A DNA stretch of 57,774 bases, the filler included, from Candidatus Desantisbacteria bacterium CG1_02_49_89 (GTDB taxonomy: Bacteria; Desantisbacteria; UBA1551): the NCBI GenBank assembly GCA_001871075.1. It is 4 parts of 4 records of this genome, joined end to end, with 100 filler letters (N's around TTAATTAATTAA, not from the genome) between each part and the next. Parts side by side here need not be neighbours in the genome. Positions count along the whole stretch, not along the records: positions 15,944 to 31,483 come from MNUP01000030.1; 3 more parts are not named here. One strand, written 5' to 3'. Shown here in pieces: positions 429 through 49,374 of the stretch. A program made the translations under genes and the position numbers. Position 1 is the first letter of the stretch. Each line of letters starts with the position of its first letter. The notes under the pieces are model-generated. The model saw nothing but the letters and a program-made list of their open reading frames with translations, did not search any database and was not told the DNA's origin.

Positions 429-450
429 GAAGAATTTTGAGGTGACGAAG

Positions 451-4664: not shown

Positions 4665-4773
4665 AAGATCTCCTTTAACCACGGATTAACACGGATTCTC
4701 TCGGATTTAGCTTTTCCCAAAGGGATCCCTTTGGGACAACTTTCAACCTTCAACCTTTAACCTTTAACTTTGT

Positions 4774-5475: not shown

Positions 5476-5665
5476 GCAATGCTCCTTTTGCAACCACAGA
5501 TTAACACAGGTTAACACCGTAAATGCATTAATATTTTGCAGGGATTCAGAGAGATTTAAAAATAATAGAAATTAAAGTGGTTTGAATCCCGTTAAATCCC
5601 TGTTAAAAATAAGATTTATTTTGCCGCGTTAAACCTGTGTTCACCTGTGTTCACCTGTGGTTAAA

Positions 5666-11375: not shown

Positions 11376-14300
11376 TTAAATCTTTGATCTGAAATTATAA
11401 GTTCCGGAACCTATTTCAAAAATTGCTCTGTGATTCTCTATTCTCACAAACTTCACGCCGGAAGACTGAGAAGCGGGTTTCCCGCCCTCTGTAACATGGG
11501 CTTCGTTTTCCGCCGGAATATAGATCGTAGCGGTCGTGTTCGGCGGAACAGCCACATCCCAAACAAGATCCGTGCCTTCTTTTTTCCACCAGCTCTCGAT
11601 CTTTCCGTTTACGGAGTGGTATATGCCGCGCACCCAGTCCAGCTGGCCGAAAAGGTGCGGGTTCAGGATTATATGCCTGAAACCCGGCTGCCTTGCATCG
11701 GGATTTATGCCCGCGATACCCGAGAAGAACCACGCGTCAAACCCGCCCTGCATCGGGTGGTTGAAGGAAAAAACCGGCTTTGTGCCGTCCTTGTAAGCCG
11801 GGACCATTGCCTCCCAAAGGGTCGTGGCGCCCTGGCTGAACATGTCCGTGAAACTCGGGAAATCCGTTTTGGCCAGGATGCCATAGGCGGTGCTGTCATA
11901 CCCGAAATCGCTCAGCGCCCAGTAAAGGTGCCTGCTTCCTATAATTCCTGTCGTGAAATGGCCGCTGTGCTTTTCCATAACGTCGGTGTTAAGGCTTTTT
12001 GCAACCTCCGCGCGTTTTCCATCAGGAACAAGGTCCAGGTAAAGCGCAACCGCGTCAGCTGTCTGGCTTTTGAACGTCATTTTCTCAGGATCAAGGAATT
12101 TCTTTATGAACGATGCTTTTATCTGGTCCGCGAGCCTGCCGTATTGTTCCGCGTCCCCGGTCTTGCCAAGCAGCTTTGCTATTTCTGAAAGCAGGCGGGC
12201 GTCAAAATAATATAAGGCTGTGGACGTAAGGACAGGCGGGCATTGCATATGGGCATTGTCTCCGGGCGGGCACCAGTCGCCGAACCCGTCCTCCACGATA
12301 TTGTCCTTTGCCATCGCAGTAAGGTAGTCAACCCATCGCTTCATATGCGGGTAATGTTTCTCGAAAACGCTTGTGTCATTGTAATAAAGGTAAATGTACC
12401 AGGGCACCTGGACTATCGCGGAACCCCAGTCAGGCCGCGCCTCCCCGCAGGTGCGCTTGCCTGTTGAAATATTGCAGGGAATGCCGGGACTTGCAGGCTT
12501 GCCTGTGGCTGTTCCCCCGCCCATACCCAGGCTTGTCTCTATATCGTTCATGTATTTCGCCCAGAAAAGCGCCATGTCATAATTATAGATCGTCATTTCA
12601 CCTGACACATGCGCGTCGCCCAGCCACCCGCACCGCTCCCTGTGCGGGCAGTCTGTCGGTATGCTGTGCAGGTTGCTGATCTCGGTCCACAGGCAGGTCT
12701 TGTGTATGCGGTTAAGCAGGTCGTTTGAGCAGGTAAAGCTCCCGTTCCTCTGCACGGACGTGTGCACGACAACGCCTTCGAGCATATCCAGGTACGGCTT
12801 ACCCGGATAACCGGTCATTTCAACGAACCTGAAACCGTGGTATGTGAACCGCGGTTCCCAGACCTCAATCCCTTTCCCCTTGCAGGTATAATAATCGGTC
12901 TGGACCACACCGGTCGCGAAAACTCCGGTGCTGTTGGGGTCGATCCTTCCGTCAGGATAAAGGACTTCCGTGAAACGCAGCCTGATGGTCGTGCCTGCAG
13001 GCGCCTTGACTTTCAGCTTCACCCACCCGGTGAAATTCTGGCCCAAATCAAAAATGCAGTGGTGAGTGGTGAGTGGTGAGTGGTTAGTTAATAAATGATT
13101 TTTATCGTCTGCTGACCACTGGTCACTGGCCACTGGCCACTTTAGTTCAACGGGTTTGACAGTGGCCATGCGCTTGATCGGGGGGATCTGCTGGGAAACA
13201 AGTTTCGGCGTCAGCGGCTCTCTGACAACCGCGTTCTGCCACCCGGAATCGATAAATTTGGGCTCAGACCATCCGGGAATTTCTTTCCGCGCGTCATATG
13301 TCTCTCCGGCATAAACATTGTTGAAAACAACCGGTCCCTCTGATGCCTTCCAGTTTTCATCGGTAATTATCGTATCGGCCGTGTTATCGCTGTAATCGAT
13401 CTTTATCAAACAGATCGCTCCGGGTTTGCCGTAAACCAGCCCTCCCCAGACAAGGTCCTGGTTATACCAGCCGTTACCAAGCATAATGCCTGCGGCGTTC
13501 CTGCCTTTCCTGACCTGTTTTGTTATGTCATAGGTCGCGTAAAACGCATAATGCTCGTAGTTTGTCTGGCCAGGGTCAAGCACGCTGTCCCCTGCCTTTT
13601 TTCCGTTCAGGTAAAATTCATAATAGCCAAGCCCGCAGATATACGCGCGCGCCTGCCTTATCGGTTTTTTCAGCTCAAAAGACCTGCGAAGCAGGGGTGA
13701 AGGGAAAGGCTTGGGCGCAACAGGGATCCTGCCCCAGGGCGGGTCCCCGTATTTCAAAACAACTTTCGCATTCTTCCAGTTCTTAGGCTCAAAATCGATC
13801 CCCTTCCAGTCGCCTTCAATTTCCTCGGCTGCTGACCAGGAATTGTCTGTGAGTACTTTTGCCTCAGCGCCGTTTTCGTATTTCACCGAAAGCCCGAAGA
13901 GCGCGCCGGCGCTTGCCTGGGTTGTGTTCATATTCTGCCAGCAGTTCGCCTGGATGAGAACCGTGTTTTTTCCCGGAAAGAGGTATTTCGCGATATCAAA
14001 ATCAGTGGTATAAAGCAGGGTCCCGCAGTCGCCCACATGGATCCCGTTTATGTAGAGCATCCCGCAGGCGTATGCCGCCATCCGCGCCTTTGCCGATCTT
14101 ATTTTATTTCCCTGCTCAACATTAAAATACCGGCGCAGGTAAACGGTCTGGTGGCCCTTGAATTCAGGATACCATATCCAGTCACCGACAGAAATATCTT
14201 CCTTGCTGCCCGGATCAGGCCTGTGGTCTATAGATATCCATTTCGCGCCTGACCAGTCTTTCTGTTCGAGCAGGCCCATCTCCCAGCAGGCAGGTTCAGA

Positions 14301-14678
14301 CCATTCTGATGCCTGTCCATCCTGGTCCCACACACGCACCTTCCACCAGCATTGCATCCCGCTTTTAAGCGGCTTGCCTGAATATTTAACCTGGGAAGTT
14401 TCGCTGGATTCTATTTTCCCCGAATCCCACAGGTCAGCCTTGTCCGGATCCAGGATCTCGCGGCTGGATGCGGCCAGGATATGGTAAGCGGTCTGTTTAA
14501 GACCCCTTAAAATGGGGACAGTCCCGATTCTACGCTCCGACTTTACGTCGGAGCCGTAAATCTGGGACAGTCCCCTGGTCGCCTCTATCTGCCAGGAAAG
14601 GCGGGGCTGGACCGCGTCTATCCCTATCGGATTTATCTGGTACTCGCTTTTCAGCATTACCGGCCGAATATTAGCCAT
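11376..14678 (-). CDS. Alpha-L-rhamnosidase (GH78) carrying two repeat-derived in-frame insertions
   Basis: DLWDSG, ICGLGYYE, DLGQNFTGW, FTYHGFRFVE, PTDCPHRERCGWLGD, GATTLWE and S.NH motifs. Confidence 0.95.
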   Translation of the reverse strand: MANIRPVMLKSEYQINPIGIDAVQPRLSWQIEATRGLSQIYGSDVKSERRIGTVPILRGLKQTAYHILAASSREILDPDKADLWDSGKIESSETSQVKYSGKPLKSGMQCWWKVRVWDQDGQASEWSEPACWEMGLLEQKDWSGAKWISIDHRPDPGSKEDISVGDWIWYPEFKGHQTVYLRRYFNVEQGNKIRSAKARMAAYACGMLYINGIHVGDCGTLLYTTDFDIAKYLFPGKNTVLIQANCWQNMNTTQASAGALFGLSVKYENGAEAKVLTDNSWSAAEEIEGDWKGIDFEPKNWKNAKVVLKYGDPPWGRIPVAPKPFPSPLLRRSFELKKPIRQARAYICGLGYYEFYLNGKKAGDSVLDPGQTNYEHYAFYATYDITKQVRKGRNAAGIMLGNGWYNQDLVWGGLVYGKPGAICLIKIDYSDNTADTIITDENWKASEGPVVFNNVYAGETYDARKEIPGWSEPKFIDSGWQNAVVREPLTPKLVSQQIPPIKRMATVKPVELKWPVASDQWSADDKNHLLTNHSPLTTHHCIFDLGQNFTGWVKLKVKAPAGTTIRLRFTEVLYPDGRIDPNSTGVFATGVVQTDYYTCKGKGIEVWEPRFTYHGFRFVEMTGYPGKPYLDMLEGVVVHTSVQRNGSFTCSNDLLNRIHKTCLWTEISNLHSIPTDCPHRERCGWLGDAHVSGEMTIYNYDMALFWAKYMNDIETSLGMGGGTATGKPASPGIPCNISTGKRTCGEARPDWGSAIVQVPWYIYLYYNDTSVFEKHYPHMKRWVDYLTAMAKDNIVEDGFGDWCPPGDNAHMQCPPVLTSTALYYFDARLLSEIAKLLGKTGDAEQYGRLADQIKASFIKKFLDPEKMTFKSQTADAVALYLDLVPDGKRAEVAKSLNTDVMEKHSGHFTTGIIGSRHLYWALSDFGYDSTAYGILAKTDFPSFTDMFSQGATTLWEAMVPAYKDGTKPVFSFNHPMQGGFDAWFFSGIAGINPDARQPGFRHIILNPHLFGQLDWVRGIYHSVNGKIESWWKKEGTDLVWDVAVPPNTTATIYIPAENEAHVTEGGKPASQSSGVKFVRIENHRAIFEIGSGTYNFRSKI

Positions 14679-14831
14679 TTAATACTCCTTTACAGTTTAT
14701 ATAGTTTACAGAGTTTACAAAGTTTACAGAGTTTATATAGTGAAAATCTCAGTGGATTAAGTGAACTCAGTGGCTGAATTTAGTTTATAAGTATAATCCG
14801 TGTGAATCCGTGGAAATCCGTGGTTAAATGT

Positions 14832-15404: not shown

Positions 15405-15653
15405 GCAAACCTCCTATTGCAACCACAGATGAACACCCTCTACAGGTTTCTGCGAAACCTAACCGTGAGGGCAGGCAGGTGAACACTGTTTTGACCACTG
15501 AATATGCCAAAAGAAGTTATTTTCACAGGGAATTGACGAGAACTTAAACTGAACTTATTACTTTTTCTGGGTTTAACCTAAGAATTTTAAGTTCTCTTAA
15601 GTTCCCTGTAAAAGTATTTCTGTGTTAACCTGTGTTTACCTGTGGTTATTTAG

Positions 15654-15843: not shown

Positions 15844-15943
15844 NNNNNNNNNNNNNNNNNNNNNNNNNNNNNNNNNNNNNNNNNNNNTTAATTAATTAAN
15901 NNNNNNNNNNNNNNNNNNNNNNNNNNNNNNNNNNNNNNNNNNN
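15844..15943. other. Artificial contig linker (N run with TTAATTAATTAA six-frame stop)
   Basis: The same 100-nt linker occurs three times. Confidence 0.98.
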
Positions 15944-18899: not shown

Positions 18900-19065
18900 A
18901 GTTTAGCCAGTTCTATTAAAAACAATTATGAATTATGAGTTATGAATTATGAATCATAAGCATAAGGAATTAATTTTAATAAATCAGCTTCTTTTCAATC
19001 TACAATCTGAAATCTACAATCTGCAATTTCACCCATGACCCATGACACATGACTCATGACTGCTG

Positions 19066-22000
19066 TTATTGTTCGGCAATAACAGTGAAACGGAGACGCT
19101 CACCGAAGGCGCAGCGACCGTCAGCGGACATTTCAAGTTCGACAACACGCGGGCTAAAGCCCGCGGCTACCGTCCCCTCACCTCTATCCTCTCCCGCCCG
19201 CCCAGCAAGATTGGCGGGCAAGCCAGGGGGAGAGGATAAAACAAAATCTGAAAGGACGGCGTCGGCAAGGTATGGAACGTCTGCCTTGATCTCAATCTTA
19301 ATTTTGATCTGAGAATTAGTGGTTGACACGAGGAACACCCCGCCCTTCGCGCCTTTCGCGTTCGAGGGAGCGATCCATCCTGCCTCGCCGTTATTCCCTA
19401 TGACAGCGGATGCCAGCACAGGTTCATTTGCTTTCACAGTATATCTCTTCCCGTTCTCAACTTCCTTCCACCCGTCAGCGGTCTTTATTTTAAACCGCAT
19501 AAACATCGCGTTCAGGTACTTGGGCGGGTTTGTTCCGTTGTATTCTACGTTGCCCACCGCGATAAGCGGGGTGTTCAGGGAATTCGTTCCCGTGCCTTGT
19601 GTCCTGAAGCCGCATACCTTACCGGACTTCATTGACGAGAAATATTCGTCCTTTATCTCCTCGTAGAACGCCTTGTAACCGCGGCAGTATTTATCCCTGT
19701 CAAATTCAAACCACTTGACAGGCTTTGGGATCTCCCTGGAAGCCGTGATCTTCGAAGAATTCTGCATTATGGCTTTTCCCGCGGGCCGCAGGTTCCTGTC
19801 AGGCGGCGCGATGCCGTAATCGCTTTTCTCGTCCACCCGGTAACCTCCCGGATACCACCATCCGAACCCGCCGTTCGCGCCGCTCTCGTACATCATCCGT
19901 AGTATATCCGTCCACAGGCCTCCCTGTTTTTCCATAAGCCCCTGGTCGTAGTCAAAAGTGCTGCCGGTCCATATCGACATCCCGAATTCCGCCCATATCA
20001 CGGGTAAAATCGGGGCGGCGTAACGGGCATACGTCACGGTAAACAGCCCGCCCTTCACCTTTTCCCAGTCACCGCCGTTCAGCCCGTATCCCTCAGGGCA
20101 AAGCATATCCACTGCCTTTGCAATGCCGCGGAAATCGTAGCTAAAAGAAGAAGACGGCACCCCCACGTCTCCTGCAACGTTCATCCTGAAACTCACAAGG
20201 TGGTTTGGGTCAATGTCCTTTATTTTCCTGTTTATGTCCCAGTATTTCCTGCACAGGAAATCGTCGACAAACCTCCTGTATGAGCAGATATACCGCAGAT
20301 GTTCGCCTTCGCTGTCCATCTCCTTGTCAGACGGGGCAGGCAGGCGCGAGCCCTGAGACACGGAGATACCCCAGTCCTTTTCCGCGTTCTCAACACCGCC
20401 GTATTTTTCAATGACCCAGTCCTTCCACTGCTTTTCAAACCCCTTCCTCCCTGCCTGGTTCCCGTAACCGCCGTTGTATGTCCCCCAGACCGGCTCCCAC
20501 GCAACGTCATACGCGAAAAGCACGTCGTTAAGGTCAAGCCTCGCGAACTTTATCACCTGATAACTTTCGCCGATATAGCAGTTCACGTGCATGCCGTATT
20601 TCCCGCACCTGCGCATGAAATCCAGCGCGTTCCTGATGCTGTTCCTGTCACCCGCTGAAATGCTCAGGGCAGTCACCCCCCATTCCTTCAACTGGCGCAG
20701 GTCCGGCTCAACCAGCTCAGGGTCATAGTTACCGTAGGTGAGCCAGTGAGACCAGTATTCATCCCTGCTCATCCCGGAAATATACAAAGGCCAGTAATTC
20801 ACGCCGAAAGGATACCATTTCTGGCCGCGCAGGTAGAAATCCCCGTCTTTCGCCGTAACGAATTCCTTCTTTGAATCAGGGGTCCATGGCAGGATCCCCA
20901 GCTCCTGGACAAGCACGTCAATGACCTTTCCGCTCTCAAGAAGTTCAGTTCGAATATCGTACGCTTCCGCGCTGAATCTGTCGACTTCCCACACTGTTTC
21001 CAGGGAATCTTTCTCCCCTGCCGGGATCTTCATTGCCTGTTCCTGTTTGAATACTGCCGTGGTTGACTTCTTCGGAAAGACAGAGATGCGCGCTGTCACA
21101 TTTTTTTCCTCTTGGCTGAAGTTCCCGATAAGCGCGCTGATCTTCACGGAAGTTTCATCCGTAAAAACACTGAATTCCTTTGAGCCCGCTTTCAGGATGT
21201 AGGCACCATCCCTTATACGGTCAATAACGCCTGTAAGCGCGGACATAAGTGCGGGATTTTTCAGGAATTCTTCCTTCGGGATGCTGAATGCGCCCCATAA
21301 AGACCTGTTGTATTTGCCTGAATGGCTGATATAAAGGTAGGCAAGCGTGCCGCGCGTCTCACCTGATTTGTCCTTCGCGTAGATGAGCGGGACCCACCTT
21401 GTTTTCATGCTCTGCTGAAATCCGACTCCCCGGGGCCTGTGAACGCAGGACCAGGATTGCTGGGGCGGATTGAATTTCAGGTCAGGCTTAATAAACGCCT
21501 GTTCCGGCTCAACCGCGTAACCGGTAATGTCTTTCAGCTGGTAATGCTTGTAAAGCGGGGTCATTGCCTCAAGCTCCATCTCAATCTCAGGCCCTGCTAA
21601 CTGGAATGGATTTTTCATGGCGCCTATCTCGTCTATCCAGAACGTGTGCGGGCCGGCTTCAACCGCGTTTGTCTGTCCGAACGCGAGCCCTATCATAAGC
21701 TGGGCAGCGTTCTCCGGCTTGAGCACGTCTCTGGCTCCGCCCCTTCCCTTACTGGGGTTGTCAGGCCAGTATTTGAAATCCTTAGGGGAAAGCATGAAAA
21801 ATTTCCATTTCGTCTCAAGATTAATTATAGCGAACCAGCGCGACTTATCCTCTTCTGTCCATTCGACCAGCAGCTGCTTTGTTTTTTCATCTCCTTTTGC
21901 CCAGAACGATATGATATTGCATCCGGGCGGGAACGGGTTATCGATCTGCTGAAAATAACAGTCCCATCCCTGCAGGTCTTCCACGTCAACCCTGGCGCTT

Positions 22001-23022
22001 TGCTTTGTGCCGCCGCACCCCGTCCCCTCGGCTTCTATGGCGCTCTGGCTGCCGTTCGAGGAGTGGACCCACCCGTCAACCCCGTCCTCAAAATTGAAAA
22101 GAACCGTCCTGTCAGGGGAAGAGGAAAGATATTCCTCAAGCTCGGGCCTTGTCATCCACTTCACCCCGCCTTTCGGGTCTGCCTGCTTCCACGCGGTATC
22201 CCTGAACGGCGGGCCTTCAAAACACAGCATGCTGCCGCCTGTTTTCAGGAACGACATCAGCGGCAACTGGGCGTTCGCGGGAAAAACTTTTGAATGCGGC
22301 AAAAGCAAAAGGAAAAAGTTATCGGTTGAAAGTATGGACTTGTCTGAAAGCTGTTCGCCGTCAAGGAAAGTTACTCCGAAACCTGAGCCGCGCAGCTCTT
22401 TCGCCATCGCATCCGGAAAACTCATGTCCGCATCCCTGAATTTTTCCTTAAGTATCGCGATACTTCCCTTCCTACCTTTTTCGACACTGATTAACACAGA
22501 TGGACTCTGATTTTCAGAAGATACAGATTTTTCAACCTGGGACCCAGCATCTTTTTTGACACTGATTTCCGCAGATTCAGATTTCTTGTCGGATGCCTGG
22601 GCAGCGGATGCCTTAACTATCGGTATCTGGTCAGTGAAAACAATAGGGGCAAGCGGGTTCTGCCAGTCTTCGCCCAGCCACACAGCCATAATAAGCGCCT
22701 CCTTCTCTGAGAGTTTCGGGGCAACGAATTTGAATTTCTTCTCGCCCTTGCCCGAAACCTTTTCCTTATAAGCCTTCAGCACGCCATGTTCAGGGTCTTT
22801 CATCTCGCAGTTAATGGAGGCGGAGCCTTCGGGGATCCCGAACTTCGCGGTCACCTCGAACTGCTTTCCTTCCTCTATCGTGTCAGGGGTCTTTGAGAAC
22901 TCGCAGACAGCGTCCTCTGCCCAGCAGACCGTGTAAGGTGTAACGTGTAACGTGTAAGGCAGGCAGAAACTAAAAACTAAAACCAAAACAGGCACAAAAA
23001 ACCACAGAAGAGTTCGCTTCAT
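19066..23022 (-). CDS. Large secreted clan-A glycoside hydrolase (GH5/GH42-like) with N-terminal Ig-like and CBM-like domains
   Basis: Signal peptide; galactose-binding-like domain (ISFWAKG...FWIDEI); F...G.K...GVNY, YDVAWEP (acid/base) and IWAEFG (nucleophile). Confidence 0.75.
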   Translation of the reverse strand: MKRTLLWFFVPVLVLVFSFCLPYTLHVTPYTVCWAEDAVCEFSKTPDTIEEGKQFEVTAKFGIPEGSASINCEMKDPEHGVLKAYKEKVSGKGEKKFKFVAPKLSEKEALIMAVWLGEDWQNPLAPIVFTDQIPIVKASAAQASDKKSESAEISVKKDAGSQVEKSVSSENQSPSVLISVEKGRKGSIAILKEKFRDADMSFPDAMAKELRGSGFGVTFLDGEQLSDKSILSTDNFFLLLLPHSKVFPANAQLPLMSFLKTGGSMLCFEGPPFRDTAWKQADPKGGVKWMTRPELEEYLSSSPDRTVLFNFEDGVDGWVHSSNGSQSAIEAEGTGCGGTKQSARVDVEDLQGWDCYFQQIDNPFPPGCNIISFWAKGDEKTKQLLVEWTEEDKSRWFAIINLETKWKFFMLSPKDFKYWPDNPSKGRGGARDVLKPENAAQLMIGLAFGQTNAVEAGPHTFWIDEIGAMKNPFQLAGPEIEMELEAMTPLYKHYQLKDITGYAVEPEQAFIKPDLKFNPPQQSWSCVHRPRGVGFQQSMKTRWVPLIYAKDKSGETRGTLAYLYISHSGKYNRSLWGAFSIPKEEFLKNPALMSALTGVIDRIRDGAYILKAGSKEFSVFTDETSVKISALIGNFSQEEKNVTARISVFPKKSTTAVFKQEQAMKIPAGEKDSLETVWEVDRFSAEAYDIRTELLESGKVIDVLVQELGILPWTPDSKKEFVTAKDGDFYLRGQKWYPFGVNYWPLYISGMSRDEYWSHWLTYGNYDPELVEPDLRQLKEWGVTALSISAGDRNSIRNALDFMRRCGKYGMHVNCYIGESYQVIKFARLDLNDVLFAYDVAWEPVWGTYNGGYGNQAGRKGFEKQWKDWVIEKYGGVENAEKDWGISVSQGSRLPAPSDKEMDSEGEHLRYICSYRRFVDDFLCRKYWDINRKIKDIDPNHLVSFRMNVAGDVGVPSSSFSYDFRGIAKAVDMLCPEGYGLNGGDWEKVKGGLFTVTYARYAAPILPVIWAEFGMSIWTGSTFDYDQGLMEKQGGLWTDILRMMYESGANGGFGWWYPGGYRVDEKSDYGIAPPDRNLRPAGKAIMQNSSKITASREIPKPVKWFEFDRDKYCRGYKAFYEEIKDEYFSSMKSGKVCGFRTQGTGTNSLNTPLIAVGNVEYNGTNPPKYLNAMFMRFKIKTADGWKEVENGKRYTVKANEPVLASAVIGNNGEAGWIAPSNAKGAKGGVFLVSTTNSQIKIKIEIKADVPYLADAVLSDFVLSSPPGLPANLAGRAGEDRGEGTVAAGFSPRVVELEMSADGRCAFGERLRFTVIAEQ

Positions 23023-23073: not shown

Positions 23074-23146
23074 CCGGAGAGTCATTAACCCGGTTCTGAC
23101 TCGTAGGTCCCTGTGTTAAGTTCCAGTTTCACCGGAACTACAGGGA
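23074..23146 (+). repeat. Double-hairpin element family B, copy 2 (73 nt)
   Basis: CCGGA-GAGTCA/TGACTC-GTAGG-TCCCTG-N5-AGTTCC/GGAACT-ACAGGGA. Confidence 0.88.
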
Positions 23147-23181
23147 TAACGATGTTACAACGATTCTCAACGATTCTCAAC

Positions 23182-23337
23182 CTATCGTTTTATATACATC
23201 GGGCGTTTCGCCATCTTGCGGATCGAGTCCCTTTGCATTTCCCGCCGCATCTGTTCGCGCAGCTTCCTCATATCAACAAGCTGCTTCTGTTTCACCGGAT
23301 CCTTTGCCGCAGGTGCCTTGTCTTTTGACTCTTCCAT
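23182..23337 (-). CDS. Small basic hypothetical protein (51 aa)
   Basis: MEESKDK...RPMYIKR with a purine-rich RBS (AAGGGAAAGGA); no recognised motif. Confidence 0.55.
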   Translation of the reverse strand: MEESKDKAPAAKDPVKQKQLVDMRKLREQMRREMQRDSIRKMAKRPMYIKR

Positions 23338-23450
23338 TTTTTTGTCCTTTCCCTTTTTTATGGATAATAAATATAGCAAGCCTCCCTCCTTAAAAACTGG
23401 CGGGTCTGCGAAAAGGCTTGCCCTACGAAATCCTAAGGTGAGGGTGTTCA

Positions 23451-23473
23451 AGGGCGGGCAAGCCCGCCCCTAC
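23451..23473 (-). repeat. GTAG-type REP element
   Basis: Minus strand GTAGGGGCGGGCTTGCCCGCCCT; similar REP-like hairpins near 19147-19170, 23410-23426, 27751-27773, 32828-32850 and 32933-32982. Confidence 0.75.
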
Positions 23474-23553
23474 GCGTATTCGCAAGCTAAAAACATAAAA
23501 TTATCATAATCCGTGATAATCCGTGTGAATCCGTGGTTAAAATTCAGTGGTTT

Positions 23554-26500
23554 TTATTGAATAGTTACTGCTTCGCCTTCAAGCAGGTCGAGGATGAGGA
23601 GGTCGCCGTCTTTTTTGGAGCCGGCATTCCTGCCGGTAATTTTGGAGCCGGATTTGAGAGTTGAAAGGAATTTTGAAGGGGATATTTTTACCTGAAGGTC
23701 GCATGTGGACATAATTTTAAGTTTTCCGCTGCCCCAGTCCAGCATAACGTTGGCGGGTTTTCCGCCCTTGAACTGGAGGCCATCCGACTTGTATTCAGTG
23801 TTGCCGATAAAGAGGGCTTTGTCTCCCTTGAAAACATAACCTGTGCCGATCATGTTCTGCGCCTGCGCGGTTTCCATTGTCCCTGTTGGGCCTGCCCTGT
23901 TGATATATTCTGAAAGGAACTGGGTCGCGTGCGCGATCGGTTTCCTGTGCCCGAAAGGAGTGCCGTCATAGTAGAAGAACCCGAACCTTTCCTCGTAGAA
24001 ATTGTCGTCCCCGCGCCAGGCATTGGGATTGTCGTTCAGCATCCACTTGTAACTTCCTTCATACCCCCTGCTAAGCGGGTAAAGGTAATGGATCATTTCA
24101 CCCACGGCTGAAGAGTAGAAATCCAGGTATCTTGAACCCATCATAATGCCGTTCGAATACCCGAACTCACCGAAGCTGACAGGTTTTTCAGGCCATACAG
24201 CCGCTATACGGTCAAACGTAGTTATGTTCTGAATGACCGAATCGTATGAGAAAGGCCTTACGTAAACATGGTGCGAGATAAAATCCAGCTCAGAAGCGCA
24301 CGGGAACGCGGAGAACGGAGTATTGAACCCGACTGTGACCAGGTGGTTCTTGTCAACCTCCCTTATCGCATCCTTGTTAAGCTTAATCCAGATACGGAAG
24401 CTCTCGTCACCCGCTTTCACGACTTCATCGTCCAGCATCGGGACTTTGTTATCCTTCAGCTTGGGGAAGGTGGTCCACTCGCCCAGGTTCTCGCCTACGT
24501 ATATACCGAACTTATTGACTCCGTCCTGAATGTCCGTAATAGGAAGTTTTATACCCGCCGGATATTTTTCGGCAATAATAGCGGGAAGCCACGGCTCGTT
24601 CTGGATGTCGTAACCGAGCACCATTGGTTCGTCCTTAAGGTGGGCGCATAGCTTCCTGATGCACTCCTGCGATTTTTCCATCTGCCCGTAGCGTGCAAGG
24701 TGCACGAGCAGGTGTATGTCATAGCGCCTCGCGAATGTAAGCATAATATCGATCTTGTGGAAATCGTCCTTCATAATGTCGTCAGCAAGCTTATAAAGGA
24801 AGAGCCTGAAGGTATTTATCCCTGCCTCGTGCGCCTTCCTGAAATCCAGCTCCATCTTGACCGGGTCAAAATATTCCTTCCACTCGTTCCAGCACCTGTC
24901 AAACCAGCCGTGGTAGTTCGAGCCGATGCAGAAGAACCTTTTTCCGTCAGGATAAACCAGGTGTTTTTTGTCAGCGCTTACTTTCATGAAACCTTGTTGC
25001 ACTGGCGGCATCGGCGCGACATCAAACATATGTTCGGCGATATCGGATACACCCTTGCCGCTCTCTCTCAATACCACCCTCAGCATATAGCTTCCCGCGT
25101 CCATAGGGGTAACCCAGCCGCATTCAACTGCCTGGTTCTTTCCGGGCTCAAGCCCGATTTCAAATGCTTTACTGAATACAGTTTTGCCGTCCTTCACAAC
25201 GCTTATCTCAGCATTCGCCTGTTTTGCCGCAGATCCAAGGTTGCATACCCGTGCAGAAAACAAGGCTTCTTTACCCGGTTCGTAAGTAAGCCGGCCCGGA
25301 CTTATGCTTCCCAAAAACAAACCATTTTTCATCGCTCCGATTATTTTTGAAAGCGCGGGAATGAAGGACGGGTCCTTGTAAAACCCGGGATCCTTTATCC
25401 CGAAACAGGCAATGACCGAGTTTTTCATAGCCTTGCTGTAATTTACAAGCATAGACGCGATAGCGCCCTTGTATCTGCCATATTTATCATAGGCGTTGAT
25501 AAGCGGCACGTACCTGCCGCCTGTCTGGTTCGGATACGCAATGGCAAAATCCCCGCCTGTTACGCCCGCAAGGTTAAGCCCGGATTCAAGCAGCGCCTGC
25601 GCGGAATTTATTTCCGCCTTCGCGACATCATTAATAACATAGGCGCTGTAGGCGTCGTTGAAAACAGGGACCTTCATCCTCGCGGTAAGGTCCATTTTCG
25701 GGTAGGGATTCTTCGCAATGCCCACCTCGTCTATCCAGATCTCGTGCTGGCCGCCCTCCACCGAAGTGTGAGAATACGCAAGCCCGATGCTGATAATGGA
25801 CGCGTTCTCGAGTTTCACCGCGTCGCCCTTGCCGCCCCTTCCCTTGCTGGTATTATCCTTCCAGTACGCGAAGGCCTCGGGCAGGAGGCAGTAGTGTTTC
25901 CATTCGGTTCCCATGTTAACCGTGGCGATCCAGCGCGAACCGTCCCGCTCCCCGATCTCCACGGCGATCTGTTTTGTCCTCTGAGACCCTTTTGCCCAAA
26001 AGCAGACAAGGTCCTGGCCTTCGGATATGGAGCCGTCTATGCCGGCGCTCCAGTTGTCCCACCCGGTAAGTCCGGGTATGAATATTTTAGCTCCTTTGCC
26101 CTTGTATCCCTTGTCGGCCTCCAGGCTTCCCGGGGTTGAAACGTCGTTAGTTGCCCTGCGCCACCCCGAAGGCTCGTCCTCAAAATCAAAAAGCATGTTC
26201 TGGGGCTGGACCGATGAGATCGTTTCCTCTATCTGGGACTTTGTCATCCACTTGCCGTTAAAATTCCAGACAAGCTCTTTGAACGCGTACCCTCCAAGCG
26301 TCACGAGGTCGCCGCCCCTGGTCAAAAACCTCAGCAGGGAAGCGGAAGCGGAAGCCGGAAAATAATCCGCACCTCCGGCAATTACCAGGCAGTCAAAATT
26401 CTCTATATTAAGTATGGAGCTATTCCGTATTTTCTCGCTGTCAAGCACTGTCACGCCGAAACCGGATCCGCGCAGGCCCGTAACAACAGCGTCCGCAATG

Positions 26501-27621
26501 CCTGTTCCATCCATTCCGGGAAGGCTGTCCCTGAACACCGCGATGCTCCCGTTCTTCCCTTTTTCCACGTCAGGTTTCCCTCCGGGCATACCGCTCATCT
26601 CCTTTCCGGTTATCGGTATCGGCTCTGAAAACTGTATGGGCGCGAGCGGTTGCTGCCAGTCCTGCCCGAGCCAGGCGGCGATCACCACCTGCCCGGTTGA
26701 AAGGACCGGAGCAGTAAAAGAAAAAGTCGCCTTTCCTTTTCCTTTAACTTCCGGCGACTCTGATTTCAGAACGTTGTTGGACATATCCTTCATTTCGCAG
26801 TTCAGCCTTGCTTTTCCGGCTGAGGAAGGAATGCTGTATTCCACTGTTGTCATAAATTCCTTTCCTTCCACCACCTCGCCTGGCAGGTCTGCGATGGCGC
26901 AGGTTGCTTCCTTGCCGGGAGGCTCCCCGGATTCCTTAACTTCGGATTTCGAAAAAATCTCTAATTTTGACACTGATTCGACACTGATCTTACTGGTTTC
27001 TTCAGACTTGGAAGCTTCCTTCTTTTCTTCCTTCGGCTGGGGCGCTGATCTTTTCTCCACAACAGGGATAGGATCCGAGAATTTTATGGGGGCAACCGGG
27101 TTCTGCCAGTCTGTGCCGGCCCAGCAAGCCATGACTATTGCCTCCATCTGGTCCATTTTCGGCGCTACAAAAGTAAGGGTTTTCTCGCCCTTGCCCTTTA
27201 CCCTCGGGGACTGGGCTTTCAGGACATTGACGCTGTCCTTGTCCTTCATCTCGCACTGCAGGATCTGCTGGCCCGCGTCCTCGGGAATGTCGTATGAAAC
27301 CGTGACCTCGAACTTCTCGCCTTCGCCCACCTCGGACGGCAGCTTTGTGAATTCACAGGAAGCGTCTTCAGCCCAGCAAACCGTAGAAAGTGCCCACCCT
27401 GCGCAAAGGCAGGGCGAGGTCTCGCCCCGATATTGATCGGGGCGGATAAGGTGTAAGGTGTAAGGCAGGCAGAAACTAAAAGTTAAAACCAAAGGAATCA
27501 CCACGGAGGCACGGAGTCCCCTACAGCTCCGGAATAAAATCGGAGCTAAACGCAGGGACCTTCGGGTCAGAACGGAGTTAATGACCCTACGGCACGGAGA
27601 AAACACAGGTCTTTTCTTCAA
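23554..27621 (-). CDS. Large secreted clan-A glycoside hydrolase, paralog of 19066-23022, with a repeat-expanded N-terminus
   Basis: GSNY, GINTFR.F, LGYDIQNEP, DFISHHVY and FGEFG motifs; two copies of the N-terminal domain. Start placed at the TTG 5 nt after GAGG (uncertain). Confidence 0.75.
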   Translation of the reverse strand: MKKRPVFSPCRRVINSVLTRRSLRLAPILFRSCRGLRASVVIPLVLTFSFCLPYTLHLIRPDQYRGETSPCLCAGWALSTVCWAEDASCEFTKLPSEVGEGEKFEVTVSYDIPEDAGQQILQCEMKDKDSVNVLKAQSPRVKGKGEKTLTFVAPKMDQMEAIVMACWAGTDWQNPVAPIKFSDPIPVVEKRSAPQPKEEKKEASKSEETSKISVESVSKLEIFSKSEVKESGEPPGKEATCAIADLPGEVVEGKEFMTTVEYSIPSSAGKARLNCEMKDMSNNVLKSESPEVKGKGKATFSFTAPVLSTGQVVIAAWLGQDWQQPLAPIQFSEPIPITGKEMSGMPGGKPDVEKGKNGSIAVFRDSLPGMDGTGIADAVVTGLRGSGFGVTVLDSEKIRNSSILNIENFDCLVIAGGADYFPASASASLLRFLTRGGDLVTLGGYAFKELVWNFNGKWMTKSQIEETISSVQPQNMLFDFEDEPSGWRRATNDVSTPGSLEADKGYKGKGAKIFIPGLTGWDNWSAGIDGSISEGQDLVCFWAKGSQRTKQIAVEIGERDGSRWIATVNMGTEWKHYCLLPEAFAYWKDNTSKGRGGKGDAVKLENASIISIGLAYSHTSVEGGQHEIWIDEVGIAKNPYPKMDLTARMKVPVFNDAYSAYVINDVAKAEINSAQALLESGLNLAGVTGGDFAIAYPNQTGGRYVPLINAYDKYGRYKGAIASMLVNYSKAMKNSVIACFGIKDPGFYKDPSFIPALSKIIGAMKNGLFLGSISPGRLTYEPGKEALFSARVCNLGSAAKQANAEISVVKDGKTVFSKAFEIGLEPGKNQAVECGWVTPMDAGSYMLRVVLRESGKGVSDIAEHMFDVAPMPPVQQGFMKVSADKKHLVYPDGKRFFCIGSNYHGWFDRCWNEWKEYFDPVKMELDFRKAHEAGINTFRLFLYKLADDIMKDDFHKIDIMLTFARRYDIHLLVHLARYGQMEKSQECIRKLCAHLKDEPMVLGYDIQNEPWLPAIIAEKYPAGIKLPITDIQDGVNKFGIYVGENLGEWTTFPKLKDNKVPMLDDEVVKAGDESFRIWIKLNKDAIREVDKNHLVTVGFNTPFSAFPCASELDFISHHVYVRPFSYDSVIQNITTFDRIAAVWPEKPVSFGEFGYSNGIMMGSRYLDFYSSAVGEMIHYLYPLSRGYEGSYKWMLNDNPNAWRGDDNFYEERFGFFYYDGTPFGHRKPIAHATQFLSEYINRAGPTGTMETAQAQNMIGTGYVFKGDKALFIGNTEYKSDGLQFKGGKPANVMLDWGSGKLKIMSTCDLQVKISPSKFLSTLKSGSKITGRNAGSKKDGDLLILDLLEGEAVTIQ
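27393..27446 (-). repeat. Double-hairpin element family A (54 nt, in-frame in a signal peptide)
   Basis: TCCGCCCCGAT-CAAT-ATCGGGGCGAGACCTCGCCCTGC-CTTTGC-GCAGGGTGGG; absent at the same site in the paralog. Confidence 0.92.
27518..27592 (-). repeat. Double-hairpin element family B, copy 3 (75 nt, in-frame)
   Basis: CCGTA-GGGTCA/TGACCC-GAAGG-TCCCTG-N5-AGCTCC/GGAGCT-GTAGGGG. Confidence 0.88.
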
Positions 27622-27839
27622 AGTTACCTCACAAAAATTACTTTTTAAACTACTTTTGCAACCACGAATTAGCACGGATTTCCACGAATTTCAAGCTTGT
27701 AAGCTTTGTAAACTACACTTGAAACCAAAGGTGAACACGGGTTAGATACATCAGGGCTGAAGCCCTGAGTTACAGTAAATTCCTTGCTGTTGATTCATAA
27801 CTCATAATTGATTTTGCCCGCTATGGTCTATGGACTGCG

Positions 27840-31483: not shown

Positions 31484-31583
31484 NNNNNNNNNNNNNNNNN
31501 NNNNNNNNNNNNNNNNNNNNNNNNNNNTTAATTAATTAANNNNNNNNNNNNNNNNNNNNNNNNNNNNNNNNNNNNNNNNNNNN
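31484..31583. other. Artificial contig linker
   Basis: N run with TTAATTAATTAA. Confidence 0.98.
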
Positions 31584-32799: not shown

Positions 32800-33117
32800 G
32801 AATAAAGGTGAATTTTATACGCAACAATGTCGGATAAATCCGACCGCTACAAAATCCCCCTTAATTCCTCTTTGAAAAAGGGGGAGATAGGAGGATTTGA
32901 AACGGAGTAGAGCCTTCTAGAGTAGAGCTTTAGGAGTAGACCCTTCAGGGTCGTAAAACAACGGGGCTGAAGCCCCTACTCCTAACACACGCAAACCTCC
33001 TTCCTTGAAGATTGGCAGCTTGCCCGCCGTAGCATCCGCAACCTTTCCGCGAATAGCGGAGAGCTAAGGTTGACGGAGTATCTGCGCAGGCGGGGGTCTT
33101 CGAAAAGGTTTGCCCTA

Positions 33118-33164
33118 TCCGCCCCGATGGACATCGGGGCGAGACCTCGCCCCAAAGGGGCGGG
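33118..33164 (+). repeat. Double-hairpin element family A (47 nt, intergenic)
   Basis: TCCGCCCCGAT-GGAC-ATCGGGGCGAGACCTCGCCCC-AAA-GGGGCGGG; splits the GCCCTA|C end of a REP. Confidence 0.9.
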
Positions 33165-33180
33165 CGATGCACGAGTCTGT

Positions 33181-36293: not shown

Positions 36294-36971
36294 TTATTTG
36301 CCGGCCTTTTCCACCACGACATCCTTGAAAACGGCAACGCAGTCAGACGTTGAATTCGTCCACTTGCGCGCGCCTAACACTATCTTGCCCTTTGCCACGT
36401 ACGGCGCCTCGTTCCAGTCCTTGTCTTCCGCCTTCAGGACCTCCTTGCCGTCCAGGCTTATCGTTATCACGTTTTTGACCGCGGTTATCTTAAGGTCGTG
36501 CCACTTCGCGTCCCGCAGGGTCAGGTTCTCGCCTTCCGCTATCTTAAGCGGCGTGTCGTCGTTGGTGCCGACGCCCTCGGACATCTTGTGGATAAATATC
36601 CCGCGCGCCTAGAAAGCTATAGTGTACAGGTTCATTTCGTCCATGTACCTTATCCCTATCCACACGCCGTCCCTCCAGTCAGCGCCGGGAGAAGTCATTT
36701 TCAGCTTGCAGGAAAGCGAATAATCCGCCCAGTCTTCCTTGCCTGCTGACACCCCGACCACGTTCCAGCCGTCGTTCCCGCTGTTCTTAACCTCATACCC
36801 GTCAGCGGTAACCGCTGCCTCGCCGCCTTCCACTGTCCATGCCGGCGAACCGTCGCTGCCCTTGGCATACTTCTTGAAATCATCCGAAAAGAGCGGCGCG
36901 TCCGCGGCGAAACACCTTAACCACAGAGAACACAGAGACAAAACCAGGATCCCGGCCAATCTTTTTCTCAT
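36294..36971 (-). pseudogene. Secreted beta-sandwich (DUF1080/LamG-like) protein interrupted by one in-frame TAG at 36609-36611
   Basis: Track ORFs 36609-37043 and 36294-36584 are in the same frame and read ...YTIAF*ARGIFIHKMSEG...; LFSDDF, W.DY, WHDLKI, G.I.L and FKDV.V motifs span the stop. Confidence 0.75.
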
Positions 36972-41688: not shown

Positions 41689-42546
41689 TCAGTTAATTCC
41701 CAGTATCTTGTGGAACTGGGGAATAATCCTGACGTCTTCCAGGCTGTGCCCGGCGATCCGCTGGAATTCAAACAGGTCCTTATGGCGCTGCCCGGACGCG
41801 GGCTGGATAACCAGAGGGATCTTTCTGTCAACCCCGGCAACAAGAAGCGCTGCTTTTTCAATCTCCCGGGCGGTAGTCCTGCCTGTGACCACGACCTTCA
41901 CGAAAACCCTGTTCCCTGCCGCGCGCAGGAACCTTCGGTGTTTTTCCCACAGGTCTCTTCTACCTGTCGCGCTGGGGAATTTTATGTCCATTGCGACGAA
42001 ATCCACGTTTTTTATTATCCCGCGCAAGGCGGCAGGCAGCGTTCCGTTTGTTTCCAGGTAGATCCTGAAACCCAGGCCCTTCAGGTCCGGGATCAGTTCT
42101 TTCAGGAAATCCGCCTGCAGAAGCGGCTCTCCCCCGGTCAGGGAAATTGAATGATAGTGAAAAGTTGAAGGTTGCCCGCCCCGATTGATATCGGGGCGAG
42201 ATCTCGCCCCCGAGTAAGGGGCGGAAAAGTTGAAAGTTAAATACTCCTTCAAAACCGCGACAATATCTTTTGATGATATTGGATTTTTAAGTTTTAACCT
42301 TTCCCGCCCAATCAAAACGATTGGGCGAGGTCTCGCCCGCTGAAAAGACGGGCGGAGACTTTTGCAATCTGTAATCTGCAATTTATTTATACAATACTCC
42401 TGTCGCTTCCAGGAAAACCGGCTGTCGCAGTAATCACAGCGTCGAAGATTGCAGCCGGAGAAACGGATGAATATCTGCCTGACGCCGGCGTATATCCCCT
42501 CGCCCTGTATGCTGTCAAATATCTCCGCCACCCACGCGCTTCGCAT
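41689..42546 (-). CDS. queE: 7-carboxy-7-deazaguanine synthase (radical SAM) with two in-frame hairpin insertions
   Basis: EIFDSIQGEG...G.RQIFIRF.GCN, SLTGGEPLLQ, LETNGT, MDIK and R.IPQ.HK motifs. The start could be the GTG at 42576. Confidence 0.88.
   Translation of the reverse strand: MRSAWVAEIFDSIQGEGIYAGVRQIFIRFSGCNLRRCDYCDSRFSWKRQEYCINKLQITDCKSLRPSFQRARPRPIVLIGRERLKLKNPISSKDIVAVLKEYLTFNFSAPYSGARSRPDINRGGQPSTFHYHSISLTGGEPLLQADFLKELIPDLKGLGFRIYLETNGTLPAALRGIIKNVDFVAMDIKFPSATGRRDLWEKHRRFLRAAGNRVFVKVVVTGRTTAREIEKAALLVAGVDRKIPLVIQPASGQRHKDLFEFQRIAGHSLEDVRIIPQFHKILGIN
42175..42225 (-). repeat. Double-hairpin element family A (51 nt, in-frame in queE)
   Basis: TCCGCCCC..GGGGCGAGATCTCGCCCCGAT..ATCGGGGCGGG inside an AAAGTTG heptamer array. 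Confidence 0.9.
42303..42356 (-). repeat. Double-hairpin element family A (54 nt, in-frame in queE)
   Basis: TCCGCCCG..CGGGCGAGACCTCGCCCAATC..GATTGGGCGGG. Confidence 0.9.
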
Positions 42547-43741: not shown

Positions 43742-45898
43742 TTATTTTAGTATCAGCAGAAGCGCGGCGAGGGAGAAAAAGAAGATCGCGGTTATTATCT
43801 TAACAGGTATTATATTTTTCTGCGAGAATTCAGCGAACTTCTTTGAGCCGACCCCGAAATACGCGAGCAGAAATACTATAATGAGGGGAATGATGAACAT
43901 CAGGTTATAAAGAAAAAGATAGAAGTAAGCCTGCGCCGCGAGGGCCGGGTCCTTGGTCATAAAAGCAATGGTCGGTATGTATATCTGTCCCGTGCACACG
44001 GCTTCAAGCAAAGAAACAAGCAGTCCCGTGAAAAACGCCCCGGCTATGATCAAAGGCGCGTTTATGTTTTTCCTTATCCAGAAATGTATGCTTTCCTTGA
44101 CTGCCCGGGGAAGCTGGAGCGCTATCCTGCTCGAATCGCCGGTTTTCTTGTAGATATACGCGTCATACAGGCTCATGCAGCCCAGGAATACGGCAACGGC
44201 AAAAATGGCGTAGAAGATAGCGGAAGAAACAACCTTGAACGCGGATATGCTTTGCAGGACCTTAAAAAGCCCCACGCCAAGCATGTAATAAGCGGCAAAA
44301 ACCCCTGCCGCGAAAAATATCCCGTTCAGCAGTATGTCCCGCTTGCTCCTGCCCGCGTAGGTCAGGAAAGAAATAAAAAATATGATAGTCGCGAAAGCGC
44401 AGGGATTTATACCGTCGATAAGCCCAGCGGCTATCACGGCAAACGGGCCGAAAGACCTGAACCTGCGGGCTATCACGCTTTCAGTATTAGCGCCTGCGGC
44501 CTGAAAGGTTTCGGAAAGAGTCTTTTTAAGCGGCTGGGTCTTCTTGGCCTTAATCGCGGCAAGCTCTTCTTCGATCAATTTTTCGAGCTTTTTCTTTATC
44601 TCTATGCTGCCAAGCAGACACCTTCCGCCCACATAAGCTTCCATGGGCACGCTTTTCTTTATCCCGTATTTTTCTTCAAGGCCCACGAGCATCTCGTAAT
44701 TTTCTTTTTTCGAAATATCGAATTCTTTTATTTCGACAGCACCGCCGTATTTGACCCTGATCCCCGGCAGCAACCCTCCCCTTATTTCCTCGCACTGGCG
44801 GCATCCCGGCGAATAAAAATACATAACCTGCAACGCGCCTTTTTGCTGTTTGTTCGGAGTCACAAACTTTTGACTTTTACCTTTTACCTTTTGACTTTTG
44901 ACTTGTATCTTCTCTTCGATTACAGGCCTTTTCACCCTTCCCGTTATCAGAATTGAACTCACCTGCTGGGTCGGGTCATTCGTCTCTATGTATAAGTTAT
45001 AGATAAATGTTTCTCCGAGGACTTCTTCGGAAAAGAAAAACAACTTTATACCTGATTCCCCGAGCGGCTGAATACTGTCCGAGGCAGGAAGAGCGCTAAT
45101 GCATTCGCAGGAAGCCCTTATTTTCCTTAAAACAAGTGTGTCTGACCCGATGTTGCGGACAGGTATCTCGCTTTCAACGGTCCTGCCCTTCTCTATCTCG
45201 CCCCAGTCCAGCTCATCCGGGACCATGATGAACGGGATCGCTCTTCCAAGCTTTGTTTCCGGGACGACCTTTAACGCGGCGGTTTCAGGTGCTGCCGTTG
45301 CTGCAAGTCTTTTTGCTTCCTGCAAAACATCGTATTCCGCCACAAGCGCGGCGGTCTGCGTGTCATCCGAAACTTTGTCGTTAAGCAGCGTCAGCTTGTA
45401 ATCAGAAACCTTCAATATATAATCTTTTTTCTGGATATAGAGCTTGTATGTTGACTGGCCCGGGAACTGGACAAGGTTCGCTTTTGTCGCGATCTTATCC
45501 CTTGTAAGCGTGATCCTGCCCGCGTATTCGCCGTTTTTGCCTGCCTGGACGATAACTGCGTTCCCGGATTTAAGCGGTTTTTCCATCAGGGTCTGCGTGT
45601 GCCCGCCTACAATAATGTCTATTCCTTCCACCTCTTTGGCTAATTTTTCATCCCCTTCGTCTCCGAGATGAGAAAGCACGACAACAATGTCTGCCTTACC
45701 TTTTGTGTCAGCAATGATCTTTTTCAAAACCGCTGCCGGGTCAAGGATCACAAGCCCTTCGATCTTTTCTTTGGGGAAGAAAAGGAACGCCCTGTCATTC
45801 ACAACAGACGCTATCAGGATCTTAAATCCGCCTATATCCTTGATTATGTACGGCTTAGTAAATAATGGGGACTGTCCCGATTTTTGTAAGTCAAAATC
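43742..45898 (-). CDS. Multidomain protein: 5'-nucleotidase-like metallophosphoesterase part + DUF1573 Ig-like + thioredoxin-like CxxC + CcdA/DsbD-like TM domain (5' end truncated at gap)
   Basis: VVLSHLG...IDIIVGGHTQ...QAG..G (metallophosphoesterase); N.GSDTL.L...ASCEC (DUF1573); FYSPGCRQC; GLIDGINPCAF...EAVCTGQIY. The frame stays open to the gap. Confidence 0.82.
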   Translation of the reverse strand, partial: DFDLQKSGQSPLFTKPYIIKDIGGFKILIASVVNDRAFLFFPKEKIEGLVILDPAAVLKKIIADTKGKADIVVVLSHLGDEGDEKLAKEVEGIDIIVGGHTQTLMEKPLKSGNAVIVQAGKNGEYAGRITLTRDKIATKANLVQFPGQSTYKLYIQKKDYILKVSDYKLTLLNDKVSDDTQTAALVAEYDVLQEAKRLAATAAPETAALKVVPETKLGRAIPFIMVPDELDWGEIEKGRTVESEIPVRNIGSDTLVLRKIRASCECISALPASDSIQPLGESGIKLFFFSEEVLGETFIYNLYIETNDPTQQVSSILITGRVKRPVIEEKIQVKSQKVKGKSQKFVTPNKQQKGALQVMYFYSPGCRQCEEIRGGLLPGIRVKYGGAVEIKEFDISKKENYEMLVGLEEKYGIKKSVPMEAYVGGRCLLGSIEIKKKLEKLIEEELAAIKAKKTQPLKKTLSETFQAAGANTESVIARRFRSFGPFAVIAAGLIDGINPCAFATIIFFISFLTYAGRSKRDILLNGIFFAAGVFAAYYMLGVGLFKVLQSISAFKVVSSAIFYAIFAVAVFLGCMSLYDAYIYKKTGDSSRIALQLPRAVKESIHFWIRKNINAPLIIAGAFFTGLLVSLLEAVCTGQIYIPTIAFMTKDPALAAQAYFYLFLYNLMFIIPLIIVFLLAYFGVGSKKFAEFSQKNIIPVKIITAIFFFSLAALLLILK

Positions 45899-45998
45899 NN
45901 NNNNNNNNNNNNNNNNNNNNNNNNNNNNNNNNNNNNNNNNNNTTAATTAATTAANNNNNNNNNNNNNNNNNNNNNNNNNNNNNNNNNNNNNNNNNNNN
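45899..45998. other. Artificial contig linker
   Basis: N run with TTAATTAATTAA. Confidence 0.98.
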
Positions 45999-47871: not shown

Positions 47872-47924
47872 TCCGCCCGTCTTTCAGCGGGCGAGACTTC
47901 GCCCACCCGGAAAGGATGGGCGAG
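47872..47924 (+). repeat. Double-hairpin element family A (53 nt, intergenic)
   Basis: TCCGCCCG..CGGGCGAGACTTCGCCCA..TGGGCGAG; splits CAC|GAAA of a CACGAAA array. Confidence 0.88.
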
Positions 47925-48118
47925 GAAATCACGAAAACACGAAATAAACAACTTTATAACCTTTATAAACTACCTTTTAACCACGAATTTCCACTAATTT
48001 ACACGAATTATTTTTAACTTTGGAAACTCTGTAAACTATGTAAACTTGTAAGCTTATCAGCCTAAAACTCTGACACGCTGATACGTTGACACGTTGATAC
48101 GCTTTAACTTGTTACTTG

Positions 48119-49243: not shown

Positions 49244-49308
49244 TTGTTTAAAAGTTAAAAAGGTTAAAGGGGTTAAAGGTTTTAAACCATAATTCGTGCT
49301 AATTCGCG

Positions 49309-49374
49309 CCGTAGCCCGCCACGAATATTGGCGGGCGGAGGCCCCTGTATTGAGCTGCATAGCAGCTACAGGGG
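49309..49374 (+). repeat. Double-hairpin element family B, copy 4 (66 nt)
   Basis: CCGTA-GCCCGCCA/TGGCGGGC-GGAGG-CCCCTG-N5-AGCTGC/GCAGCT-ACAGGGG. Confidence 0.85.

Follow-up and report, generated by a model that had tools for sequence, protein, structure and literature searches.

How did the secretion leader of an exported protein come to be so much longer than that of its tandem paralog? The question is raised by a 57,774-nucleotide (nt) stretch of Candidatus Desantisbacteria bacterium CG1_02_49_89, hereafter the window, which is made up of four contigs. The 5' ends of the two paralogs, here called gene A and gene B, lie in the contig at 15944-31483. All 24 listed sequencing runs containing the stretch are groundwater or aquifer metagenomes. 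The leader of gene B holds a 54-nt double-hairpin repeat that its paralog lacks, and a second double-hairpin repeat of 75 nt lies further upstream. We suggest that the leader was probably lengthened by both repeats, with both translated through and coding from a TTG start at 27621.

19066-23022, minus strand: gene A, the paralog whose site is empty; it starts with ATG at 23022 and has an AAGGAG ribosome site at spacing 5
23554-27621, minus strand: gene B, start disputed; tandem paralog of gene A, encoding an exported protein of about 1,355 amino acids if translation begins at TTG 27621

Under this reading, the region 27364-27621 would be the 5' end of gene B, and two small non-autonomous double-hairpin repeats would have extended its leader. 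The repeats resemble repetitive extragenic palindromic (REP) elements or miniature transposable elements with inverted repeats (MITEs), and each would have landed within one of the many short tandem arrays in this genome. The copy of the first family (family A) would sit in frame between the hydrophobic core and the probable signal-peptidase site, and the copy of the second (family B) between that core and the probable start, TTG 27621. Both would be translated through, by analogy with the palindromic elements of Rickettsia. The copies might persist because no folded structure is at stake in this part of the protein, a long basic n-region and an extended segment ahead of the cleavage site. The leader is laid out as follows, from the start codon towards the mature protein.

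27626-27630, minus strand: GAGGT, Shine-Dalgarno-like, 4 nt 5' of TTG 27621
27619-27621, minus strand: TTG, the favored start codon, followed by Lys-Lys-Arg
27593-27599, plus strand: CACGGAG unit on the start-codon side of the family-B element
27518-27592, minus strand: 75-nt double-hairpin element of family B, adding 25 codons if translation begins at TTG 27621
27502-27516, plus strand: two CACGGAG units on the gene side of the family-B element, containing the alternative GTG starts 27504 and 27501 (minus strand)
27448-27504, minus strand: hydrophobic core of the leader, within a block in which 43 of 47 nt are identical to gene A
27447-27465, plus strand: heptamer array TAAGGTG, 2.7 copies, adjoining the 54-nt element, with the remainder of the array at 27381-27392
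27393-27446, minus strand: family-A double-hairpin element of 54 nt, equal to 18 codons in frame
27364-27372, minus strand: Ala-Glu-Asp codons at the leader end, with a probable signal-peptidase site after Ala

The original prediction described a signal peptide expanded from about 37 to 86 codons by nested insertions; its sequence observations are confirmed apart from a one-base slip, and its interpretation is partly supported. The distance from TTG 27621 to the closing Trp-Ala-Glu-Asp is indeed 86 codons, which occupy 27364-27621 rather than beginning at 27363. Its translations of both genes are exact on the minus strand. The leader of gene A takes 37 codons and includes a heptamer array of four units (22930-22957). 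When the two 5' regions are aligned with MAFFT, gene A shows a single gap, exactly 54 columns wide, facing 27393-27446, and the register of the four TTACACN heptads is preserved to either side. Removal of the 54 nt had been said to give exactly the length of the matching stretch in the paralog. The 75-nt copy likewise lies inside a CACGGAG array, the flanking units of which are those at 27502-27516 and 27593-27599. Read by eye from TTG 27621, the leader would have a long, strongly basic n-region free of Asp and Glu, then a core some 19 residues long and, about 30 residues further on, a Cys-Trp-Ala site. The probable signal-peptidase site directly precedes the conserved Cys-Glu-Phe of the mature domain.

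The 54-nt segment is a dispersed element that was inserted into the leader-coding region with the frame kept. The leaders of two outgroup homologs, P0005 (locus L004, the gene A ortholog of another genome) and the distant Armatimonadia homolog L001, are plain, with about 22-26 residues, and stop directly before the conserved Cys of the mature domain. Neither of the two carries the 54-nt insert. Because both outgroup leaders are plain, the event was an insertion in gene B, not a deletion in gene A. A presence of the segment in all distant orthologs had earlier been named as the sign of a deletion, and its absence from both favors insertion.

Both inserts belong to repeat families with further copies in the window. 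The family-A core, GGGCGAGRYCTCGCCC, occurs five times in 57.7 kb compared to 0.07 expected occurrences, and none of 100 shuffled sequences reached five. All five copies share a layout of two stems and two hairpins, and the stems differ among copies. Family-A elements measure 48-54 nt and end in TCCGCCC...GGGCGGR, without a GTAG-type tag; a target duplication is not evident. Family B has three copies with a mean column identity of 79% and compensatory differences in both stems, and measures 75 nt in gene B and 73 nt in the other two. The hairpins are stable, with a minimum free energy of -35.6 kcal/mol (z = -5.5) for the family-A copy of gene B and -31.6 kcal/mol (z = -3.8) for the family-B copy. 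The remaining copies are located as follows.

23075-23156, plus strand: family-B copy 5' of gene A, in an ATCGTT-type array, oriented opposite to the gene and clearly non-coding
357-438, plus strand: third family-B copy
42300-42345, minus strand: family-A copy, first insert of queE, 16 residues in frame
42176-42223, minus strand: family-A copy, second insert of queE, 17 residues in frame, flanked by CAACTTT array
47882-47927, minus strand: family-A copy in the 5' untranslated region (UTR) of the gene 46820-47841, inside a TTTCGTG array
33113-33166, plus strand: family-A copy, intergenic

Three of the five family-A copies thus lie in frame within genes, one in a 5' UTR and one between genes. 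The bin that holds the family-A copy of gene B reached 20-32 times the single-copy depth in all four runs, so many more family-A copies are present in the same population. GTAG adjoins the first stem in two of the three family-B copies, and a purine-rich second tag stands at the 3' stem in all three; the GTAG tags resemble those of GTAG-tagged REP elements. Rfam contains no family that reaches its gathering score within the window, and none for family A or family B. Termite-leu, the only Rfam match at an E-value of at most 1, was dismissed at 17.4 bits compared to a threshold of 51 bits. Transposase families, RAYT included, have no match among the 23 window open reading frames (ORFs) scanned.

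Whether the 75-nt copy is coding as well depends on the start codon. Our tally covers nine full-length public models among 15 listed of 17 cluster members. These models start at 27330 (four), 27621 (two), 27675 (two) and 27504 (one); all of these starts except 27330 preserve a leader and have the 54-nt copy in frame. In a survey of window starts, ATG accounts for 24 of 28 minus-strand picks, and AGGAG-type sites lie mostly at a spacing of 4-6 (38 picks). For TTG 27621, GAGGT stands at spacing 4, and Lys-Lys-Arg comes next, like in other leaders of the window. The family-B copy of gene B is open in one of its three forward frames, which is the frame of the gene. The other two family-B copies have TAA in place of TTA and a loop shorter by 2 nt. 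The evidence from ribosome site, n-region and frame makes TTG 27621 the best candidate, and translation likely begins there, which would make the 75-nt copy coding. The original prediction flagged this start as uncertain. Public models are divided among four starts, and TTG 27621 is the favored candidate on the evidence above.

Several points weigh against a leader of 86 codons. The start codon of gene B is itself deduced from sequence features, and TTG is rare among confident starts in the window. Four of the nine full-length models start at GTG 27330 and leave no leader. P0002, the only listed leader-bearing model at NCBI, starts at GTG 27504, which places the family-B copy in the 5' UTR. 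Copies of the families occupy 5' UTRs elsewhere, including the family-B copy 5' of gene A and the family-A copy at 47882. An open upstream frame this long (62 codons) would arise by chance with a probability of about 0.07, and the case had been selected for its open frame. The roughly 30 residues from core to presumed cleavage site are far above the usual length, and the leader may work poorly or stay uncleaved as an anchor.

The strongest competitor is a start at GTG 27504 or 27501, by which the family-B copy would be a 5' UTR element, only the 54-nt copy would be coding, and the leader would span about 47 codons. We regard such a start as possible but distinctly less likely than TTG 27621. 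GTG 27504 is the start of the cluster representative (P0002), and it agrees with the 5' UTR positions of other copies and the rarity of TTG. It would leave an n-region without basic residues, so that the hydrophobic core follows no basic residue, unlike in the other window leaders read. No ribosome site of at least 5 nt stands at a usable spacing; the nearest purine run is AGGGGA, some 12 nt upstream, and it pairs within the stem of the second family-B hairpin. A start at GTG 27504 also leaves unexplained why this one, and no other family-B copy, reaches 75 nt and is open in frame.

A dead leader is less likely again. Insertions that disabled export would leave a gene in decay, or one whose translation now begins at GTG 27330, with the leader-like sequence as a relic. 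The choice of 27330 in four of the nine models and the abnormal distance from core to cleavage site both fit this improbable alternative. A start at 27330 would remove not only the leader, but also the Cys-Glu-Phe stretch, with its following Lys and Pro, that is conserved in gene A and P0005 and lies upstream of 27330; the Armatimonadia homolog retains only Cys near that place. The 1,269 codons of the gene B body are intact, and the frame from 27621 is unbroken. P0025, a gene A variant with a clear ATG, has the same insert, and its full-length protein is identical otherwise. The leader of gene B would presumably still be functional.

Inserts can also escape translation, as in ribosome bypass in phage T4 gene 60 and the mitochondrial byp elements. 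The very stable hairpins would suit inserts that are removed from the messenger RNA or bypassed by the ribosome, but all three family-A copies within coding sequences are in frame and free of stops, which neither removal nor bypass would demand; no direct sign of either was found, and we consider untranslated inserts very improbable. Least likely of all is an insert assembled in error from repeats: Logan unitigs break inside the family-A core at 27423-27428 and one short public contig, L003, is a mosaic, but both junctions and the whole family-B copy lie on contigs of single-copy depth without mismatches, and the assembly L002 agrees.

The contigs in question come from run X2 and match 23117-27422 and 27429-27771 with no mismatch, spanning both family-A junctions and the entire family-B copy. 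The only stretch that no contig bridges is 27423-27428, within the repeated core. The independent assembly L002 is 99.9% identical over 14.5 kb and differs by one substitution and by one array that is two heptamers shorter. Contigs that skip either insert were absent from the four runs, with none at the 15 joints viewed of 19, and rare alleles are invisible in contigs.

The two genes had been presented as a natural before/after pair, and the comparison is not as clean as first described because public variants of gene A carry B-type sequence. P0025 is gene A with its unambiguous ATG start and the same 18 residues with flanks of the gene B type; its 22 positions that differ from gene A all fall at the insert. 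P0026 combines a gene A body with a leader of the gene B type, and L003 changes at its end, inside the heptads, from A-type to B-type sequence. The leader cores of genes A and B are identical at 43 of 47 nt, compared to 184 identical columns of 309 over the following 300 nt. Because the leader cores are so similar and the variants so mixed, the 5' ends of the two genes evidently exchange sequence. On the 3' side of the insert, the longest exact match between the genes is only about 8 nt (alignment inspected by eye), and P0025 is thus unlikely to be a simple k-mer chimera.

Beyond the leader, genes A and B are 32% identical in the body and 49% identical in the N-terminal domain. Sequence searches of Pfam, NCBIfam and PDB returned no match for either gene. 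Gene B is a putative glycosidase on the basis of NEP and EFG-like motifs found by eye and of its neighbors, a GH38 gene and an O-antigen ligase-like gene. An AlphaFold model of its putative catalytic part, built from a four-row alignment, has a mean predicted local distance difference test score (pLDDT) of 41.1, which is too poor for a fold search. A scan for promoters and terminators 5' of gene B gave no convincing signal. Relatives comprise one distant relative in genome contigs and at least three loci in metagenome contigs. L003 and the protein P0003 share an in-frame deletion of 774 nt (258 codons) in the gene B body at about 25062-25825, and it lies between short direct repeats. In run X7, unitigs are interrupted at the two corresponding places (25032-25061 and 25826-25855), a hint that this allele coexists there.

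Insertions in frame are not confined to leaders. The gene queE, encoding a radical-SAM 7-carboxy-7-deazaguanine synthase, contains two family-A copies, and a gene for a GH78 alpha-rhamnosidase contains heptamer arrays.

41689-42546, minus strand: queE, with two family-A copies in frame, each adjoining arrays
13058-13141, in the GH78 alpha-rhamnosidase gene 11376-14678 (minus strand): heptamer arrays AGTGGTG, 4.4 copies, and CTGGCCA, 4.3 copies

The closest ortholog of queE (P0032, 64% identity) lacks exactly the 16 and 17 residues of the two inserts and keeps array-like peptides at both sites. Both inserts are retained in all four full-length sequences of the cluster, which differ at few other residues. 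The AlphaFold model of the protein has a mean pLDDT of 81.7, and its only segments below 50, residues 63-81 and 108-126, are the two inserts. The inserts are hence modeled as the only disordered loops in an otherwise confident fold. Two other queE models, P0152 and P0156, are split or shortened, with starts inside or after the inserts. In the GH78 gene, the arrays account for some 21 residues without a counterpart in PDB entry 6i60. The original prediction proposed cleaved signal peptides as tolerated landing sites. This is too narrow because, of the three in-frame copies among the five of family A, two lie in the catalytic domain of queE, and the GH78 gene holds heptamer arrays. Repeat-aware annotation is needed, given the four public starts for gene B and the split or truncated queE models.

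What the copies have in common is their location in short tandem arrays, not in leaders. The same short tandem unit stands on both flanks of five of the eight copies of the two families, with flanks read by eye. Arrays make up 3.1% of the window (6.5% when 15-nt margins are added), and the binomial probability of at least five of eight copies within arrays is 6e-5. The 57.7-kb window yields 78 tandem-repeat rows compared to six in 15 kb of L004, where the arrays are missing. An array contributes to a further leader as well: the earlier example of the gene 36609-36971 stands, with the leader at 36919-36940 encoded by two units like AACCACAGAG. We tentatively propose that short, locus-specific arrays with units of 7-10 nt might be landing pads for both hairpin families. 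Arrays and elements would enter coding DNA about as readily as intergenic DNA, and would form a lineage-specific generator of disordered loops and leader extensions. Heptamer arrays in leaders could even serve as on/off frame switches for exported glycan-degrading enzymes. This broader proposal is doubtful at present; were it true that arrays are an insertion target, a targeting mechanism would be indicated. Frame-shifting copy-number variants of coding repeats were absent from the cluster variants and from the four runs, in contigs that cannot reveal rare variants. Array copy number does vary between assemblies, since contig L002 has two units (14 nt) fewer in the intergenic AATTATG array at 18939-18952, 3' of gene A.

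Arrays are also found at other sites in the window. Decamer arrays of AATYCGTGGN type lie directly 5' of many ribosome-binding sites (4675-4697, 5495-5517, 14795-14823, 15620-15644, 27662-27692, 47981-48009 and 50253-50335), frequently end in GTGGTTGCAAAAGGAG or a close variant, and may be promoter or regulator sites. The longest ORF of murG (48119-49360, minus strand) has an N-terminal extension of 46 residues with an array at 49246-49279; its true start is probably further downstream, and arrays probably confuse start calling there too. An ACTTTTG array of 5.6 copies lies at 44866-44904 within the gene of a DUF1573 / Ig-like protein (43742-45802, minus strand). The contigs of the window are joined by linkers of the form N44-TTAATTAATTAA-N44 at 15844-15943, 31484-31583 and 45899-45998, and ORFs that cross a linker are not real.

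Among the papers searched, none described such insertions in this phylum, and several known systems offer partial parallels. In the opa genes of Neisseria, CTCTT repeats code within the leader, and changes in their copy number are a proven on/off switch. The likeness lies in a tandem repeat with a unit not divisible by three in the leader-coding region of an exported protein. Here, by contrast, the only variant array found is intergenic, and no frame-shifting copy-number variant was seen among the contigs. TAACTGA heptamer repeats are described 5' of start codons in Beggiatoaceae and cyanobacteria (PMC4679880). The window resembles them in its sets of 2-6 heptamers just 5' of start codons, but a single heptamer serves the entire genome there, whereas nearly each array has its own unit here. 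The tandem repeats of Borgs are intergenic as well as coding, enriched in exported proteins and a source of disordered peptide, with units divisible by three inside ORFs (PMC9879509). Locus-specific tandem repeats in intergenic and coding DNA, their enrichment in exported proteins and the addition of disordered peptide are shared features. The differences are that heptamer units stand in coding DNA here (the leader of gene A, queE and the GH78 gene) and that the arrays also host hairpin elements.

REP elements and the related BIME (bacterial interspersed mosaic elements) are mobilised by RAYT transposases. Like REPs, the elements of the window are short GC-rich hairpins, often paired and without target-site duplication; GTAG at the start of two of the three family-B copies may be a counterpart of the conserved GTAG or CGTC tag of that system. 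REP/BIME and GTAG-tagged palindromes are characterized as short, and REPs as extragenic by definition (PMC3733652). Three of the five family-A copies, in contrast, are intragenic.

The closest parallel is the Rickettsia palindromic elements (RPE), reportedly described by Ogata et al. in 2000 and 2002. Two reviews present RPE as in-frame, translated and fold-compatible inserts of about 105-150 nt in unrelated genes (PMC10969869, PMC3184786). The elements of the window are likewise dispersed palindromic repeats in frame within unrelated coding genes, and the queE inserts are predicted to form disordered loops. They belong to dispersed families with stable hairpins, and they keep the frame relative to an empty homologous site (54 nt compared to gene A; 16 and 17 residues compared to P0032). 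For the family-B copy, the frame is kept only if translation starts at TTG 27621. In contrast to RPE, the elements measure 48-54 and 75 nt, occur in a different phylum and inside short tandem arrays, and one lies in a secretion leader. Given the differences in size and phylum, homology to RPE families is unlikely. The leader inserts of gene B are another case of a known kind of event, closest to RPE, and the reading of 86 codons is plausible. Selfish DNA within protein-coding genes, best known from Rickettsia, would thereby extend to an uncultured groundwater phylum, where gene B against gene A and queE against P0032 provide unusually clean natural comparisons of filled and empty sites.

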